Shown piece by piece: positions 12,470 to 54,172 of a stretch of DNA of 64,000 bases. Within the stretch, counting starts at the first letter, position 1. Each line of letters begins with the position of its first letter. The position numbers were made by a program, and so were the translations under genes. Origin of the DNA: Parcubacteria group bacterium (GTDB taxonomy: Bacteria; Patescibacteriota; Patescibacteriia; UBA1558; GWA2-36-10); NCBI GenBank assembly GCA_003104935.1, contig PQAE01000004.1, positions 6,835 to 70,834 of the forward strand, read 5' to 3'. The notes beneath the pieces are model-generated. The model worked only from the letters and a program-made list of their open reading frames with translations, was not told the origin of the DNA and made no database searches.

Positions 12470-12577
12470 ATGAATCCCGTTAGAAATTTAAACTAATCTT
12501 TATTAGTCAATATAATAGCGGGTTAAAACAAAAAGAATATTTTAAAGCTTAGTAAATTCGTAAATTTCTAACGGGAT
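12470..12577 (+). promoter_or_regulatory. structured leader with mini-uORF overlapping the uvrD start: 16-bp inverted repeat ATCCCGTTAGAAATTT (12474-12489) / AAATTTCTAACGGGAT (12562-12577) sequestering the start codon
   Basis: TATAAT at 12454-12459. uORF ATGAATCCCGTTAGAAATTTAAACTAA (MNPVRNLN*) runs 12470-12496. The 3' arm contains the uvrD ATG at 12576. A related element is upstream of dnaG. Confidence 0.55.
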
Positions 12578-14597
12578 GAAGCATATTGATTTTAAAAAAG
12601 AGCTCAATGAGGAGCAATATAAGGTAGTGACAGCCGGTAGCGGAGCGCATTTGGTCTTAGCCGGTGCCGGTAGCGGTAAGACGCGGACTTTGGTTTACCG
12701 TGTGGCCTGGCTTTTAGAGCAGGGGGTTAAGCCAGATAAAATATTACTACTTACTTTTACCAATAAAGCGGCGAGTGGCATGATGAATCGGGTTCGGGAA
12801 ATCCTGGGGTATAGAGAAAATCAAAAATTGATTCTCTGGGGCGGAACTTTTCATGCTATTGCCAATAGATTATTGCGCCAGTACGGAAAATATATAAATA
12901 TTGCACCAGATTTTACCATAATTGATGCGGATGATTCTGAAAGATTGATTAAAATTATTTGCAAGGAAATCCTAGGGGATATTAAAGATGCGCGACGACC
13001 TTCGCCGGGTATTATTAAAGAAGTGATTAGCTTTGCGGCCAACGCCAAGATTGATCTAGAAGAAAGTCTGGACAGAAAGTTTAGCGATTGGTCCGGCTGG
13101 CTGCCGGATCTGCAAAAAGTGGCGGCCGAATATGAACGCCGCAAGACTATGTCCAATGTTTTAGATTTTGATGATCTACTGACTAAGTGGTTGGAGCTGA
13201 CCCGCCACCCGGAGGCCGGTAAGAAACTGGCTGATAAGTGGGAGCACATCCTGGTCGACGAATATCAGGATACCAATACGGTGCAGGCGGAAATTATCTA
13301 TAACCTCAGCCGGCACATTAAAAATGTTTTAGTGGTAGGGGACGACGCGCAAAGCATTTACTCTTTCCGAGCGGCGGATGTGGCCAATATTTTAGAGTTT
13401 CCGGAAAGATTTAAAAACACCCAGATCCACAAGCTGGAAACTAATTATCGCTCCAGCCCGGAAATATTAAAACTAGCTAACTCTATTTTCACCGCCCAGG
13501 ATCAGCAGTTTGTCAAAAATTTAAAGGCCATCAAAGACAGCTGTATCTTGCCTCAGCTGGTCGCCCTGCGCAGTAATCAGGAAGAAGCTTGGTTTGTAGT
13601 GGAGCGCATCCGGGATTTACTGGAGGAAGGGGTATCGCCGCGCAATATCGCTGTGCTTTTCCGGGCCGCATCAAATAGTCAGGCTTTAGAATTAGAACTA
13701 AACAAAAGAGGAATAAATTACGAAATGCGCGGCGGACTAAAGTTTTTTGCCCGGGCGCATATCAAAGATATCTTGTCTTTTATAAAAATTTTAGGAAATT
13801 GGCGGGACGAGATTTCCTGGTTGCGTATATTACAAATGTACGAAGGCATCGGGCCGATCACGGCGCAACAGATTTTTCAACGTTTTAAAGAATATAAAGA
13901 TTTTCCCGAGTTACTGCAGGCAAAAATAATTTTGGCCGATAAAGCCGGTAAAAGCTGGTCAAAAATCTCCTCAGTTTTTGAACAACTGGAAAAGTTAAAA
14001 GGACATAATTTGCGGGAGCTGATCGAAGTGGTGTTGGCCGAATATACCGACTATCTGACCGCTACCTATAGCGATTTTAAACAGAGAGAGGACGATTTGG
14101 AGCAGTTAGCGCTTTTTGCCACGGGTTATGATAATCTGGAAATATTTTTAAATGAAATTAGTTTGCAGGAAAGCTTTAGCGGCCAGGAAGCCAGTAACGG
14201 CCAGAAGGACGCCATTATTCTCAGTACGGTCCATCAGGCCAAGGGGCTAGAGTGGGATGCGGTCTTTATCATTAATCTGACCAATCAGTCCTTCCCACAC
14301 CCCTTATCATCCAGCCCAGCTGAAGAAGCTGAAGAAAAGAGATTGTTTTATGTGGCCGTTACCCGAGCGATTCGGCATCTGTATCTGTGTTACCCTTTAG
14401 CCGTATTTCGCTATGATGGTCAGCAAAGTATGGGTCCCTCGCCATTTATTACTCAACTGGAAAGTAGTCTATTTCGGCGTAATGATCTAGCCCGCACTAC
14501 CCTTAATCGCAGTGCCGAGGGTGTGGAGTATGTCATCGACCCGGATTATAAAGACCACGACAGTGACGGATTTTTACCCGATGTTAGTGTCTGGTAA
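12576..14597 (+). CDS. uvrD: UvrD/PcrA-family ATP-dependent DNA helicase
   Basis: 673 aa. LNEEQYKVVTAGSGAHLVLAGAGSGKTRTLVYRVAWLL Walker A, plus DEYQDTN, VGDDAQSIYSFRAA and TVHQAKGLEWDAVF helicase motifs. Confidence 0.9.
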   Translation: MKHIDFKKELNEEQYKVVTAGSGAHLVLAGAGSGKTRTLVYRVAWLLEQGVKPDKILLLTFTNKAASGMMNRVREILGYRENQKLILWGGTFHAIANRLLRQYGKYINIAPDFTIIDADDSERLIKIICKEILGDIKDARRPSPGIIKEVISFAANAKIDLEESLDRKFSDWSGWLPDLQKVAAEYERRKTMSNVLDFDDLLTKWLELTRHPEAGKKLADKWEHILVDEYQDTNTVQAEIIYNLSRHIKNVLVVGDDAQSIYSFRAADVANILEFPERFKNTQIHKLETNYRSSPEILKLANSIFTAQDQQFVKNLKAIKDSCILPQLVALRSNQEEAWFVVERIRDLLEEGVSPRNIAVLFRAASNSQALELELNKRGINYEMRGGLKFFARAHIKDILSFIKILGNWRDEISWLRILQMYEGIGPITAQQIFQRFKEYKDFPELLQAKIILADKAGKSWSKISSVFEQLEKLKGHNLRELIEVVLAEYTDYLTATYSDFKQREDDLEQLALFATGYDNLEIFLNEISLQESFSGQEASNGQKDAIILSTVHQAKGLEWDAVFIINLTNQSFPHPLSSSPAEEAEEKRLFYVAVTRAIRHLYLCYPLAVFRYDGQQSMGPSPFITQLESSLFRRNDLARTTLNRSAEGVEYVIDPDYKDHDSDGFLPDVSVW

Positions 14598-25641: not shown

Positions 25642-26595
25642 CTAGATTAATCCCACTAATTTTTTTATTTCCAACAAGTTTTTATCGGCCAGCACTTGGG
25701 CTTTTTTGGCGCCGTCAGAAAGAATTTTTTCCACTTCTAGGGGGTGAGCATCATAGTATTTTATTTTTTTTTGCACTGGCTTGAGAAATTTTAAAACAGA
25801 TTTGGTCAGCTCGTCCTTGAGTGTGGAATTCATCAATTGTTTTTTAGCTAAGTCCCGATTAAATTTTTTGTACTTAGTTGTTTCACCGAATATTTTATAT
25901 AATTCCAGCAGATTTTTTACGCCTGCCTCATCAGCCACAGCTTTTTTAATTTTTTTGGTTATGGTTGCGGCATTGTCGCGGATAGCGATATAGCTGGTTT
26001 CGCCCAAGGACTTGGACATTTTTTTATTCGGAGCATTAAGTGACATCACGCGGATGTTTTTCGACAGTATTGGTTGGATTTCCGCAAAATATTTTTTATA
26101 TTTATTATTAAATTTTCTGGCTAGCACACGAGTCAACTCCAAGTGCTGTAGCTGGTCTTCTCCCACCGGCACATATTCAGCTCCATAGATCAGGATATCG
26201 GCGGCCATCAAAGCCGGGTAGGTCAGTAAGCCGGCATTGACATTTTTGGGCTGTCGGACACACATATCTTTGTATTGGGTCATGCGCTCCAATTCAGCCA
26301 CCGGGATCAGGCAATTAAAAATCCAATCGAGTTCGGTGTGGCCAGTTACCTCAGATTGTTTACATAAAATAGATTTTTTAGGATTGATGCCCAGGGCCAG
26401 TAAATCTACAGCTAACTCACGAGTATTTTTTCTCAGCGTAGCGGCATCGATATCAATAGTCAGAGCGTGCAGATCCACTACGGAGTAAATACAATCATAT
26501 TTTTTTTGCAGATCCACCCAATTTTTGATGGCGCCCAGGTAATTACCCAAATGAAGCTGGCCAGTTGGTTTGATGCCCGAAAATAGTGTTTTCAT
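25642..26595 (-). CDS. trpS: tryptophan--tRNA ligase
   Basis: MKTLFSGIKPTGQLHLGNYLGA (HIGH region) and KMSKS. Start taken at ATG 26595; an in-frame ATG at 26616 is also possible. The track ORF extends to 26766. Confidence 0.9.
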   Translation of the reverse strand: MKTLFSGIKPTGQLHLGNYLGAIKNWVDLQKKYDCIYSVVDLHALTIDIDAATLRKNTRELAVDLLALGINPKKSILCKQSEVTGHTELDWIFNCLIPVAELERMTQYKDMCVRQPKNVNAGLLTYPALMAADILIYGAEYVPVGEDQLQHLELTRVLARKFNNKYKKYFAEIQPILSKNIRVMSLNAPNKKMSKSLGETSYIAIRDNAATITKKIKKAVADEAGVKNLLELYKIFGETTKYKKFNRDLAKKQLMNSTLKDELTKSVLKFLKPVQKKIKYYDAHPLEVEKILSDGAKKAQVLADKNLLEIKKLVGLI

Positions 26596-26762
26596 CCCGT
26601 TAGAATTTTTATTCATATTATATTGATAATAGCCTAATTGTATAAAAATAAGTCCCGGCTGTAAAGCGGGGCTAAAGTTAAGGAGGAGACTCGTCGCGAG
26701 TCTCCTCCGAATTGGCCTTTTGGACCACGAGTGCTGGGTTGCGTCCCAACAGGACTTTTCTT

Positions 26763-42862: not shown

Positions 42863-42950
42863 GGAGGGTTCGCATAGTGGCCTAGTGCACACGCTTGGAA
42901 AGCGTGCAACCCGCAAGGGTTCGAGAGTTCGAATCTCTCACCCTCCGCCA
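42863..42950 (+). tRNA. tRNA-Ser (anticodon GGA), type II with long variable arm, CCA encoded
   Basis: Acceptor GGAGGGT/ACCCTCC. Anticodon stem CACGC/GCGTG with loop TTGGAAA. T-arm GAGAG-TTCGAAT-CTCTC. 88 nt. Confidence 0.9.
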
Positions 42951-42965
42951 AATATATTAATGCAC

Positions 42966-43052
42966 GCCGAAGTGGTGAAATTGGTATACACGCACGGTTC
43001 AGAGCCGTGTGACCGTGAGGTCATGGAGGTTCAAATCCTCTCTTCGGCACCA
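42966..43052 (+). tRNA. tRNA-Leu (anticodon CAG), type II, CCA encoded
   Basis: Acceptor GCCGAAG/CTTCGGC. Anticodon loop TTCAGAG. Variable arm TGACCGTGAGGTCA. T-arm GGAGG-TTCAAAT-CCTCT. Confidence 0.9.
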
Positions 43053-43118
43053 AATTTCGACAAGAGTGACTTGTCGAAATTTGTCCCGAACGAAGTTGAG
43101 GGACAACGTACTAGATAA

Positions 43119-43194
43119 GGGCTGTTAGCTCAGTTGGTAGAGCGCTACATTCGCATTGTAGAGGTCGGGAGTTCGACTCTCCCACAGTCCACCA
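43119..43194 (+). tRNA. tRNA-Ala (anticodon CGC), G3:U70 identity pair present, CCA encoded
   Basis: GGGCTGT...ACAGTCC acceptor with G3-T70. Anticodon loop TTCGCAT. D-arm GCTC-AGTTGGTA-GAGC. T-arm GGGAG-TTCGACT-CTCCC. Confidence 0.9.
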
Positions 43195-43272
43195 TGGTCG
43201 CATGGCTTCCACCTTCCCCCAGACTTGATCCGGGGTTCGGTGGACAGGCAGTTTCGTAATTCTTGAATATTG

Positions 43273-43349
43273 GGGCATGTAGCTCAGTTGGTTAGAGCGC
43301 TACATTCACATTGTAGAAGTCGGAGGTTCGAGTCCTCCCATGCCCACCA
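43273..43349 (+). tRNA. tRNA-Val (anticodon CAC), CCA encoded
   Basis: Acceptor GGGCATG/CATGCCC. Anticodon loop TTCACAT. T-arm GGAGG-TTCGAGT-CCTCC. Confidence 0.9.
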
Positions 43350-43569
43350 TTTTTGAGAATCTCGCAGCGCCGAGCTATAGGCGAGGCGCGAAGACCCCGG
43401 CGCAGGCCGGGGCAGGTGCGACCACCATCCTTCGCTCCTTGTTACACTCGGAGCTACGGATGGCAGGCCATTTTACAAACAAAATTTGCCTTAACTTTTC
43501 GGGCCATTGGCCCGCCAAAGCTCAAAGGCGTAGTCGGGGGTTAGCGCAGTTTAGTGAGAGAGTTATAAT

Positions 43570-43644
43570 CGGGGTGTAGCGCAGTGGTAGCGCGCACGGT
43601 TCGGGACCGTGAGGCCGTGGGTTCAAATCCCACCACCCCGACCA
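43570..43644 (+). tRNA. tRNA-Pro (anticodon CGG), C1:G72, CCA encoded
   Basis: Acceptor CGGGGTG/CACCCCG. Anticodon loop TTCGGGA. T-arm GTGGG-TTCAAAT-CCCAC. TATAAT sits directly upstream at 43564-43569. Confidence 0.9.
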
Positions 43645-47936: not shown

Positions 47937-48209
47937 ATGGTCAAATTTTATTACGTTTATGTGTTGCAGAGCAAAGTCACAGGTGATCTATATAAGGGAT
48001 TGACCACGCATTTAAATCAACGTTTACAACAACATAATAAGGGATTCAATTTTTCTACAAAAGGAAAAAGGCCGTGGATGATAATTCATTATGAGGCATA
48101 TCGTGACGAAAAAGATGCGAGACGGCGAGAAAAGTATTTGAAAACGAGCCAGGGAAGTCGCACGCTAAAACGTATGTTAAAAGAGTATTTTTATGCGCAA
48201 AAAAGATAA
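47937..48209 (+). CDS. GIY-YIG nuclease family small protein (YhbQ/UPF0213-like)
   Basis: FYYVYVLQSKVTGDLYKGLTTHLNQRLQQHN is a GIY-YIG-type motif. 90 aa. Confidence 0.6.
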   Translation: MVKFYYVYVLQSKVTGDLYKGLTTHLNQRLQQHNKGFNFSTKGKRPWMIIHYEAYRDEKDARRREKYLKTSQGSRTLKRMLKEYFYAQKR

Positions 48210-52283: not shown

Positions 52284-52300
52284 GTCAGATAAATTAAGAT

Positions 52301-52377
52301 AGGAGCATGAATCCCGTTAATAATTAGCTTTAGCGGGCAGGGAGAAAATAATCAGAGACTAGTAATTTTAACGGGAT
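52301..52377 (+). promoter_or_regulatory. structured leader with SD-preceded mini-uORF (MNPVNN*) and ~14-bp inverted repeat ATCCCGTTAATAATT / AATTTTAACGGGAT sequestering the dnaG start
   Basis: AGGAG at 52301-52305. uORF ATGAATCCCGTTAATAATTAG runs 52307-52327. The 3' arm overlaps the dnaG ATG at 52376. Same core motif as the uvrD leader. Confidence 0.55.
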
Positions 52378-54172
52378 GAATCCGGTGGAGGAAGTAAAAA
52401 ATCGTCTAGATATAGTAGAGATCATCTCTGGCTATATTAGTTTATCGCAGGCCGGGGCTAATTGGCGGGCGCGCTGTCCTTTTCACAATGAAAAGACGCC
52501 TAGTTTTATGGTCTCCAAAGAAAAACAAATTTGGCATTGCTTTGGCTGTGACAAAGGCGGCGACATCATCACTTTTGTGCAGGAGTACGAGGGTATTACC
52601 TTTGGCGAAGCTCTGCGCATTCTGGCGGAAAAAGCCGGGGTGGTGCTGGAAAATCAGCGCTTTGAAAAAAAGGTAGACTACAATCCCTTTTACCAATTGA
52701 ATAAATTAGCGGCGGATTTTTATCAAGCCAAACTATCGAATAGCGACGAGGCCAGTATTAAAACCGGAAAATATTTACTCAATCGCGGTCTGACCGAAGC
52801 CAGCATAAAAAAATGGCAATTAGGATTATCCGGCTCGGCTTGGGATGAACTATATTTATACTTAAGAGATCAGGGGTTTAGTGACGAACATATTTTCCAG
52901 GCGGGATTGATTGTAAAAAAGAAAAGCGGATTAGGTTATGTGGACCGTTTCCGTCAGCGCTTGATGTTTCCCATCGCTGACGCTCAGAGCCGAGTGGTCG
53001 GTTTTACTTCGCGCACCTTGGCGCATATTATTTTTGCCGAAGATGATTTTGGCGGTAAATATATCAATAGTCCCCAGACGGCCATCTATGATAAGAGCCG
53101 CATTCTTTACGGTTGGCACTTAGCTAAAGAAAGCATCCGGCAGAAAAAGTATTTGATTATTGTGGAAGGAAATATGGATGCCATCATGGCCCATCAGGCC
53201 GGCACTAATAACACCATTGCCGTTTCCGGCACTGCCTTGACCATCGAACAGCTACGTTTGATTAAGCGTTACGCTAATAATGTCATTCTGGCTTTTGACG
53301 GAGATGCCGCCGGGTCGCGGGCCGCCTTCCGCAGTTTTGCCCTGGGCTGGCAGGAAGACATGAATCTGAAAATCCTGGTTTTGTCCGGCGGCGACGATCC
53401 GGCCGATATGGTCAAAACAGATAAGGAGCGCTGGTTACAAGCGGTCAAAGATTCGGTGCCGGTTATGGATTACTATTTCAAACGCATTGTGGCCGGCGTG
53501 GACCTGAATCGCTCAGACCATAAGAAATTGGCGGTGGGCAAACTACTGCCGATAATCAAGTTTTTGAAAAGCCGGGTAGAACAGGCGCACTATCTGCAAA
53601 ATCTATCCGATAAACTGCAGATCCCTTTAAATATTTTGCAGGGCGATCTGGAACAGGCCAAGTCCTTTATTGATAAACCGGCGGTCAATAATATAGAAAC
53701 CCCAAGGACCGAGCGGGAAAGAAAAGAAGCTTTATTGCTCTTATCGGAAAAGTTATTAGCCTTAGCTTTTTTTAAACCGCTTTATCTGGAAAAAATTATC
53801 AGTGATCTGGCGCCGGAATTTTTGGATGAGGAGCTCCAGGGCCTTTACAGGAAGGTGATTATTTATTATACTAAGCAACATAATTTGGACAATTTTGCGG
53901 ACGCCGGCGATTTATTATTGACGGAAAAAAACGACTATATCCGTCTGGTCATGCTGGGAGAGATGGAATATGGCGATTATAGCGAAAAGGACCTGCAGGG
54001 CGACTTTTTTTCTCACACTAAGCGTCTTAAATTAAGAAAGTATGAGGCCGAGCGCGATCTGCTGATTGCACAATTGCGTCAGGCCGAGCTCAGCGGTGAT
54101 CAGGATCGCCAAAATTCCGCCATGCACCAAATAAATTTACTTAATAAGGATATAAATAAATTATCTAGTTAA
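52376..54172 (+). CDS. dnaG: DNA primase
   Basis: [23 protein letters not shown]. Zinc-ribbon [11 protein letters not shown]...[15 protein letters not shown] (IVEGNMDAI...AFDGDAAG). Confidence 0.93.

Follow-up and report, generated by a model that had tools for sequence, protein, structure and literature searches.

Why a bacterial primase gene should be preceded by what looks like a copy of its own beginning is the question raised by the dnaG locus in a 64,000-nucleotide stretch of contig PQAE01000004.1 (positions 6,835 to 70,834, forward strand) from a Parcubacteria group bacterium (assembly GCA_003104935.1), referred to here as the window. A short upstream open reading frame (uORF), ATG AAT CCC GTT AAT AAT TAG (MNPVNN*), precedes dnaG, and an arm of an inverted repeat within it is complementary to sequence that overlaps the dnaG start codon. 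An earlier note on this DNA proposed a leader in which a uORF driven by a well-positioned Shine-Dalgarno (SD) sequence mimics the dnaG start and pairs with it. The present analysis points instead, with high probability, to a copy of a widespread family of mobile elements that encode a GIY-YIG nuclease; the copy lacks the nuclease open reading frame (ORF), resembles the small transposable elements with inverted repeats known as MITEs and is not a dnaG-specific control. This conclusion draws on the membership of the dnaG copy in that family, the rule by which start codons are duplicated, the link to a nuclease gene, the empty sites in relatives, the variety of genes that act as hosts and a stem that covaries within sharp limits.

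The uORF, the inverted repeat over the dnaG ATG and the spacers described in the earlier note are all present (Table 1). The dnaG start at 52376 reads ATGAATCCGGTGGAGGAA (MNPVEE), and the window DnaG is 100% identical to a protein from a metagenome-assembled genome at NCBI. The arms at 52311-52320 and 52368-52377 are complementary at 10 of 10 positions, and with a single bulged T the stem extends to 14 bp (ATCCCGTTAA-T-AATT / AATT-TTAACGGGAT). A second complete copy lies upstream of uvrD, where ATGAATCCCGTTAGAAATTT begins at 12470, AAATTTCTAACGGGATGAA finishes at 12580 and the stem reaches 17 bp. The spacer between the arms is 38 nt at dnaG and 72 nt at uvrD, measured in the latter case between 12474-12489 and 12562-12577, and TAGCGGG is found in both spacers. 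Chance is a poor explanation for these sites, since the two-arm pattern has two matches in the window versus none in 100 shuffles; an unspecific scan for a direct repeat, an arm and a start codon returned the dnaG and uvrD sites alone, with none in 20 shuffles. A truncated copy is located upstream of trpS, so that several copies are present, as the earlier note had supposed; the dnaG and uvrD copies are ORF-less derivatives, and no full-length copy with arms occurs in the window.

The proposed SD sequence did not withstand closer inspection. AGGAG (52301-52305) stops 1 nt before the uORF ATG, whereas an SD-dependent uORF would have its SD sequence 5-10 nt upstream and inside the transcript, and it falls in the discriminator of a promoter. 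Because it follows the -10 box, which is of the sigma-70 type, and precedes the predicted +1, AGGAG is probably untranscribed and the uORF is probably leaderless. The 1-nt spacing and the promoter position rule out an SD-driven uORF in a genome in which most genes lack an SD sequence. The promoter itself, TTGACT-17-TAAGAT, is conserved upstream of dnaG in six relatives (L001-L003, L262, L264 and L265), of which L001-L003, although they have no uORF, retain TAAGATAGG at the discriminator. Gene starts in the window are nearly all without an SD sequence, their upstream regions are A/T-rich and a -10-like box stands near the ATG in several, which suggests that leaderless or SD-independent initiation is frequent in the source organism.

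The same relatives provide a history of the site. In L264 and L265, the promoter is followed by six bases and then by ATGAATCCTGT; this is an empty site, a leaderless dnaG with neither uORF nor inverted repeat. L262, whose DnaG is 65% identical to that of the window, is filled at the same site behind the same promoter, with an interior of about 104 nt versus 64 nt in the window. Its copy is degenerate, with arms that are mutated yet still pair and with TGA in place of TAA at the same stop position. The dnaG leaders of L001-L003 (DnaG 72-79% identical) are 28-75 nt long and contain no recognisable arms, and no homology was found between the interior of the dnaG element and the leaders of the relatives. 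The uORF and inverted repeat, whose absence from close relatives the earlier note had named as refuting its proposal, are absent from L001, L002, L003, L264 and L265, all of which keep the dnaG promoter. The site is either a hot spot, as ATGAATCC resembles the left junction of the element, or the location of an old insertion that has decayed separately in each lineage. In L002 (600-640), an unrelated hairpin (AAGGACAT...ATGTCCTT) directly follows the conserved promoter and ATT replaces the left ATG; this hairpin may be a fully decayed insertion.

A scan of species-representative genomes (one per species) with the pattern TGAATCCCGTTA-N(31-91)-TAACGGGATGA recovered at least 118 loci, where about one chance match is expected by our own estimate. 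The 80 matches listed include 57 from Patescibacteria, 10 from Planctomycetota, 7 from Omnitrophota, 2 labelled Gammaproteobacteria and 1 from Limnocylindrales. Their layout is ATGNN, then T-CCCGTTAGA...TCTAACGGG, then ATGNN as the beginning of the host gene, and the family termini, AT-CCCGTTA(G/A)A... on the left and ...T(C/T)TAACGGG-AT on the right, are found in both the dnaG and the uvrD copies. Among the matches listed, all copies lie directly upstream of an ORF, and the host ORFs of 122 copies match 130 different Pfam families, none of them dominant.

The flanking repeat consists of the host start codon plus 2-3 nt, and its right copy is the start of the gene, as with ATGAA at 52307/52376 and at 12470/12576 in the window. 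This 5-6-nt repeat varies with the host start (ATGAA, ATGCG, ATGGA), and extra copies whose discovery was unbiased by the search pattern have the flanks ATGCGT/ATGCGT, ATGGAT/ATGGAT, ATGGAT/ATGGAA and ATGAAC/GTGAAG. Two elements at hosts that start with GTG (L045 and the full-length copy L122) have C, not T, as the pairing partner of the opening base of the start codon. Tandem and nested copies exist, and in the back-to-back pairs of L043 (6504-6714) and L103 (5444-5644) the second copy has as its left repeat the ATGAA regenerated by the first, which would be expected of a regenerated start codon that stays a target. Locus L086 has two 100% identical 70-nt copies upstream of non-homologous genes on one contig. 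The ORF-less elements have terminal inverted repeats, a target-site duplication, a small size and multiple copies, all of them traits of MITEs. In a set of 254 distinct copies, -10-like hexamers are concentrated at 6-9 nt before the left start codon (57 copies, versus 1-4 per other position), which is the arrangement at the window dnaG; copies in Omnitrophota and Planctomycetota have a purine-rich SD sequence before the left start and a second GGAGG in the right arm. Copies that break the flanking rule were also seen. In L090 (992-1087 and 2230-2353), two copies bracket a gene and CTTGT, not a start-codon repeat, stands on one side, and in L019 (5909-6008) the copy sits inside a longer palindrome (CAAATTTTGTT..AACAAAATTTG).

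These flanks account for what the earlier note regarded as an engineered mimic of the real start: the left ATGAA is the duplicated host start codon, a repeat resembling a target-site duplication that covaries with the host gene. The uORF and DnaG do share their first four residues, but the nucleotide duplication is exact only over 8 nt (ATGAATCC; 10 of 12 overall). MNPVEE begins 19 of 120 DnaG homologues, some of them from relatives that lack the element, and is both common and ancestral in this clade. The shared MNPV was therefore not copied from dnaG. It is a coincidence with two separate sources, N-P-V of the uORF coming from the conserved arm of the element and MNPV of DnaG from the ancestral protein.

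The breadth of hosts also bears on whether a dedicated cis-regulatory leader evolved for replication and repair genes, with an SD-driven uORF that mimics the start and controls a masking hairpin. Its components (the uORF, the hairpin and the overlap with the start codon) are real, and both complete copies in the window stand upstream of DNA-metabolism genes. Nevertheless, such a leader is very improbable. Its distribution largely refutes it, as copies of the element stand before genes of about 130 unrelated families from several phyla, and before trpS in the window as well, and are missing from the five relatives that keep the dnaG promoter; the AGGAG within that promoter is misplaced for its proposed role, and no Rfam family matches. 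In the window, Rfam at the gathering score found only tRNAs. Five element loci compared with Rfam at E<=1 gave no match to the elements, with sub-threshold matches lying away from them.

Several other identities were considered and rejected. A riboswitch or other described cis-regulatory RNA is opposed by the lack of an Rfam match and by host genes that are functionally unrelated. Integron attC sites stand at the 3' end of a cassette and have the order RYYYAAC...GTTRRRY, not the GTTAGA...TCTAAC found here on both strands, and the copies stand at the 5' ends of housekeeping genes. The ~20-nt spacers of the smallest copies are at odds with an invertible promoter, and arms 38-72 nt apart upstream of unrelated genes with a LexA-type operator. 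A phage origin was dismissed in view of the rarity of the family in viral contigs (2 matches among 2.9 million).

The link to a nuclease is evident at locus L102, where the same ends stand 265 nt apart around a 93-aa ORF (MNPVTPSFTYVYVIRS...LYTGCT...RFLGVTG*) that encodes a GIY-YIG protein, runs exactly from arm to arm and ends in a TGA overlapping the host ATG. The 70 homologues of this protein belong to PF01541 (GIY-YIG), are about 93 aa long, and mostly start with MNPV[TSR] or MNHVR and end with ...RFLxLTG; the left arm therefore encodes M-N-P-V-R and the right arm L-T-G-stop. The consensus of the nuclease retains the GIY-YIG catalytic motifs, and its nearest solved structure is that of the UPF0213 protein BH0048 (E = 2e-12). 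The full-length element is about 280 bp long, with a single 91-95-aa, single-domain gene (PF01541 only) and termini that form 14-bp inverted repeats, AT-CCCGTTAGA-NNN / NNN-TCTAACGGG-AT.

Metagenomes were scanned for full-length elements with AATCCCGTTAGA-N(240-270)-TCTAACGGGAT, in which the start codons were left free, and at least 120 loci were found. Among the matches listed, the left arm is preceded by ATG in 95 of 122 and by GTG in 3, the left flank having the form ATGAAT, and ATGAA follows GGG in 104 of 122; 64 have intact ORFs of 91-95 aa (59 distinct proteins), and the remainder contain stops or frameshifts. Some full-length copies have 6-nt repeats (ATGCAA, ATGAAA) or repeats that are not start codons (ATAAA). 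Extra copies on the same contigs span a continuous range of sizes from 40 to 180 nt, and the ORF-less copy of L031 still encodes ..FYTGCTNLK.., a GIY-YIG remnant (E = 2e-5). In P0131 and P0163, the overlap between the ORF and the start of the host gene is ATGA/GTGA or TGATG; both are found on many contigs, each in one genomic context, and are uninformative for mobility. A sub-family comprising L135, P0163 and their homologues has the arms CACGTTAGA / TCTAACGTG and the protein MxHVR...SLT*, such that a compensatory change in the arm core alters both protein ends (P to H, and loss of the final G). Proteins of the form MNHV...LT* go with the arms CACGTTAG/CTAACGTG.

Covariation analysis, which the earlier note had suggested, supported the stem. 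In 134 distinct ORF-less copies, pairing is 94-100% at positions 5-18 from the left ATG and then drops abruptly to background, and the three innermost pairs include all four Watson-Crick types while being paired in 94-99% of copies, versus 54-63% in shuffles. Full-length copies have the same 14-bp covarying stem. Because the inner pairs covary and pairing ends abruptly, it is the pairing itself, beyond the sequence, that is maintained in this sharply bounded 14-bp helix. The TAGCGGG shared by the dnaG and uvrD spacers proved to be a genuine family feature, an internal CGGG box present in 44 of 135 interiors where 8.3 are expected, with the reverse word occurring 3 times. Its distance from the left ATG is 20-40 nt, and in 39 of the 44 it has A or G opposite the T of the arm.

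In 63 of the 135 copies, the uORF runs through the interior without a stop. Of these, 46 have the stop in or at the right arm (TAA in 31, ATGA overlap in 15), and in the other 17 the uORF joins the host ORF in frame; the right arm has stops in two frames (TAA, TGA) and leaves the third open. The frame of the uORF relative to the terminal TGA is not conserved across copies, the start-to-start length modulo 3 being roughly uniform. Examples of uORFs fused in frame are L016, L017, L019, L022, L023, L049, L068, L087, L091, L093 and L114; these would predict N-terminally extended host proteins, MNPVR...SNG-M..., and are a likely source of mis-annotated starts.

Features of this kind raise the possibility that copies of mobile origin were afterwards exapted, with the RNA formed by left arm, box and right arm serving as a translational switch that ties host initiation to translation of the 5' uORF, to temperature or to ribosome availability. 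The enrichment of the box on the sense strand only and the purine opposite the T of the arm, which fits wobble pairing, are consistent with such a switch, as are the arrangement of stops in the right arm, the uORFs free of interior stops, the GGAGG within the right arm in Omnitrophota and Planctomycetota, the retention of paired arms in decayed copies, including L262 at dnaG, and the mutually exclusive structures obtained by folding. However, the same features are expected if they merely make the insertion harmless, whether by selection at the level of the element or by purging of copies that kill expression, and G-T pairs form in single-stranded DNA as well. Exaptation is accordingly a tentative proposal and rather the less probable one; the box and uORF features fit an element that keeps its host gene translatable and are not proof of regulation.

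The closest described system is that of the Ssn nucleases with their NTS/SRM repeats, the likeness being one of enzyme type, size and association with repeats. SsnA of Neisseria is a 94-aa single-domain GIY-YIG protein whose binding to the NTS hairpin repeat is limited to single-stranded DNA and which cleaves a few bases upstream (Chenal et al., Nat Commun 2025, PMC11893778). The ssnA gene is flanked by NTS copies, hundreds more lie near other genes and the two halves of a site can be on separate strands; the Ssn proteins form the cd10448 clade, and the authors liken the NTS-ssnA-NTS layout to an insertion sequence (PMC11893778). Both systems thus have a single-domain nuclease of about 94 aa, inverted repeats flanking its gene and many gene-less copies near other genes, and in both the repeat combines an oriented flank with a core rich in C and G (..TCCCG....CGGGA..). 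They differ in that the Ssn gene is flanked by two complete 20-50-nt hairpins, whereas the flanks of the present element are half-sites whose pairing spans the gene and which overlap the codons at its two ends. The present element also stands at start codons, duplicates the ATG plus 2-3 nt, has empty sites and identical copies at unrelated genes that indicate mobility, and is hosted by Patescibacteria, Omnitrophota and Planctomycetota.

By analogy with Ssn, the arms might act as DNA rather than mRNA, as the hairpin site of a single-strand-specific GIY-YIG nuclease that affects recombination, transformation or replication near the marked genes, a role that has been proposed for the NTS repeats in Neisseria. 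A nuclease of the size and type of SsnA (PMC11893778) is encoded by the element itself, the stem is constant in length, with a conserved core and an inner part that covaries, and a relative of the nuclease that has no arms is encoded in the window; the antisense junction TTCAT-CCCG also resembles NTS GTCAT-TCCCG, a lead only. Set against this, the published SRM consensus (HGTCWYN(0-2)YYVSBRHN(0-5)WNVSBRGN(0-2)RNCYNB) has no match on either strand of the window (shuffle mean 0.3), the nearest solved structure is labelled UPF0213, no full-length armed copy is in the window and the strict placement at start codons is left unexplained. A role of the arms purely at the level of DNA thus seems doubtful, though worth keeping in mind.

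Other known systems share some features of the element. Bacterial MITEs such as Correia/NEMIS and RUP are likewise short (54-114 nt), multicopy and gene-adjacent, with terminal inverted repeats, a direct repeat and a longer coding partner that has the same ends. In contrast to these, the partner here encodes a GIY-YIG nuclease in place of a DDE transposase, covariation of the inverted repeats shows that pairing and not sequence alone is conserved, and insertion is confined to start codons. The IS200/IS605-PATE and REP/RAYT systems also combine a small nuclease gene with hairpin repeats recognised as single-stranded DNA and with gene-less copies genome-wide, but those are HUH/Y1 systems with a subterminal hairpin per end and no target duplication, while the present element forms one long-range stem from both ends, encodes a GIY-YIG protein and has a 5-6-nt repeat. 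The free-standing GIY-YIG homing genes of phage T4 (seg/mob) are also selfish and lodged between genes of the host, and overlap of stop and start codons is frequent among them; unlike the element, they have a separate DNA-binding domain and lack terminal inverted repeats, duplication and gene-less progeny. Finally, the dnaG copy would work like the leader-peptide control of ermC-type attenuation and phage MS2 unmasking, in which a short uORF overlaps one hairpin strand and the downstream start lies in the opposite one. It differs in having no evidence of a sensing step (a stalling peptide or ligand) and in being a by-product of a mobile element found at unrelated genes.

Read as a mobile element, the family suggests the following course of events. 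The element sits exactly at the host start codon, with the host ATG plus 2-3 nt on both sides. The left repeat retains the host promoter and translation signals and starts the nuclease ORF, or a short uORF in decayed copies, and the right repeat is the regenerated host start, overlapped by the stop of the element (ATGA). By analogy with Ssn, the nuclease may recognise the arm hairpin in single-stranded DNA and drive copying. In the lineage of the window, dnaG would have been leaderless ancestrally (TAAGAT-N6-ATG); the element probably entered after ATGAA and lost its ORF later, leaving 64 nt. Transcription of dnaG would now begin at A52307, and translation from the 5'-terminal AUG would yield MNPVNN. 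As long as the RNA is not translated, pairing of the two arms would cover the dnaG AUG, whereas the right arm would be freed for dnaG initiation by a uORF-bound ribosome or by the local hairpin of the left arm with TTTAGCGGG, which is favoured kinetically.

Computed structures of the RNA from 52307 have a long-range stem (-19.3 kcal/mol) in which A and U of the dnaG start codon are base-paired, and the 5' part alone forms CCCGUUAA:UUUAGCGGG at -9.6 kcal/mol. When the first 30 nt are held open in the folding, as by a uORF ribosome, the dnaG start is predicted to be essentially unstructured. An effect of the uORF on dnaG translation is plausible, since the uORF overlaps the arm that pairs with the dnaG start, and we infer such unmasking from folding.

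On a broader view, there is an even chance that the family represents a class of minimal autonomous elements, each about 0.28 kb long, that had so far gone unrecognised. Its Ssn-like GIY-YIG nuclease of about 93 aa would recognise the hairpin of its own ends in single-stranded DNA and copy the element precisely into start codons, often a leaderless +1 ATG, borrowing the promoter and initiation site of the host and returning translation through an ATG that overlaps its stop; gene-less descendants would persist as uORF-hairpin modules before essential genes (dnaG, uvrD, trpS). No description of a GIY-YIG element that inserts at start codons was found in the searchable literature, which excludes most subscription journals, so that a prior description is possible.

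Several points weigh against the interpretation of the dnaG leader as a copy of a mobile element. Mobility is deduced from sequences, and neither transposition nor cleavage has been observed. The derivation of the small copies from full-length ones draws mainly on shared termini, co-occurrence and intermediate sizes; a remnant of nuclease coding is significant in just 1 of 96 ORF-less interiors, and none was detected in the dnaG-copy body. The 5-6-nt repeat could come from microhomology-guided copying and not from a staggered cut, and the dnaG transcription start is a predicted one. RNA folding, another check that the earlier note had proposed, gave a stronger signal for the uvrD copy (z = -3.3) than for the dnaG copy, which by itself is only weakly unusual (z = -1.44), its hairpin being modestly stabler than those of shuffles. 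Furthermore, L262 is filled at dnaG while closer relatives (72-79% versus 65% DnaG identity) are without arms, which leaves gain and loss at this site ambiguous, and long retention could mean selection for function.

If the mobile-element interpretation is true, the target duplications, empty sites and decay series would constitute direct genomic evidence that small GIY-YIG nucleases with hairpin repeats are or were mobile, which for Ssn-type nucleases and their repeats has been raised as a hypothesis only (PMC11893778). It would also describe an economical form of parasitism, common in the reduced genomes of Patescibacteria, in which insertion at a start codon allows the promoter and initiation site of the host to be used and translation to be returned. 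For annotation in these phyla, mini-ORFs beginning MNPVR..., extensions of the N-terminus (MNPVR...SNGM) and hairpins at the starts of genes would then be scars of the element and not gene-specific regulators. Many natural pairs of nuclease and hairpin would in addition be on offer for single-stranded-DNA tools.

Table 1. Features of the element copies at dnaG, uvrD and trpS, with positions in the window
Feature	Position	Strand	Basis or remark
dnaG promoter: -35 TTGACT, 17-nt spacer, -10 TAAGAT; predicted +1 A52307	52272-52277 (-35); 52295-52300 (-10)	+	Promoter scan; conserved in relatives
AGGAGC discriminator between -10 box and +1	52301-52306	+	Taken for an SD sequence in the earlier note; 1 nt from ATG (AGGAG)
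Left direct repeat ATGAA, probably the orphaned original dnaG ATG plus 2 nt	52307-52311	+	Empty sites TAAGAT-N6-ATGAATCC in L264 and L265
uORF MNPVNN*, probably leaderless; codons 2-4 from left arm of element	52307-52327	+	Same codons open the GIY-YIG ORF in full-length elements
ORF-less element body T-CCCGTTAA ... TTAACGGG, 64 nt	52312-52375	+	Fits family pattern
Left arm ATCCCGTTAATAATT	52311-52325	+	Complementarity, fold; family stem 14 bp
Internal box TTTAGCGGG, alternative partner of left arm in a predicted local hairpin (-9.6 kcal/mol)	52329-52337	+	Family enrichment, folding
Right arm AATTTTAACGGGAT, takes in A and T of dnaG ATG	52364-52377	+	Complementarity, fold
dnaG, DNA primase, 598 aa; first 5 nt ATGAA = right direct repeat	52376-54172	+	
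Second complete ORF-less copy, upstream of uvrD	12470-12580	+	Two-arm pattern, repeat scan, fold
uvrD copy, left ATGAA	12470-12474		
uvrD copy, uORF MNPVRNLN*	12470-12496		
uvrD copy, left arm	12474-12490		
uvrD copy, box TAGCGGG	12516-12522		
uvrD copy, right arm	12561-12577		
uvrD ATG	12576		
Cut-down copy upstream of trpS: ATGAAT-AAAAATTCTAACGGG-ATGAAA, right arm alone between ATGAA repeats	26591-26616	-	trpS ATG 26595-26593

Further observations concern the other copies and their surroundings. A promoter-like sequence, TTTAAA-18-TATAAT, lies inside the uvrD element (12487-12516, plus strand); if used, it would give uvrD transcripts without the left arm, in which the hairpin could not form. 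The truncated trpS copy sits immediately behind a TATAAT box. A program-made ORF list extends trpS to 26766, and the TrpRS-like N-terminus (MKTLFSGIKPTGQLHLGNY) begins at 26595. In an intergenic gap between two plus-strand genes, a lone 90-aa GIY-YIG gene (47937-48209, plus strand; PF01541) encodes a protein 44% identical to members of the armed family and is without the CCCGTTAGA/TCTAACGGG arms; the product may be a related nuclease able to act in trans on the ORF-less copies. A cluster of five tRNA genes (Rfam RF00005) is located at 42863-43641 on the plus strand.

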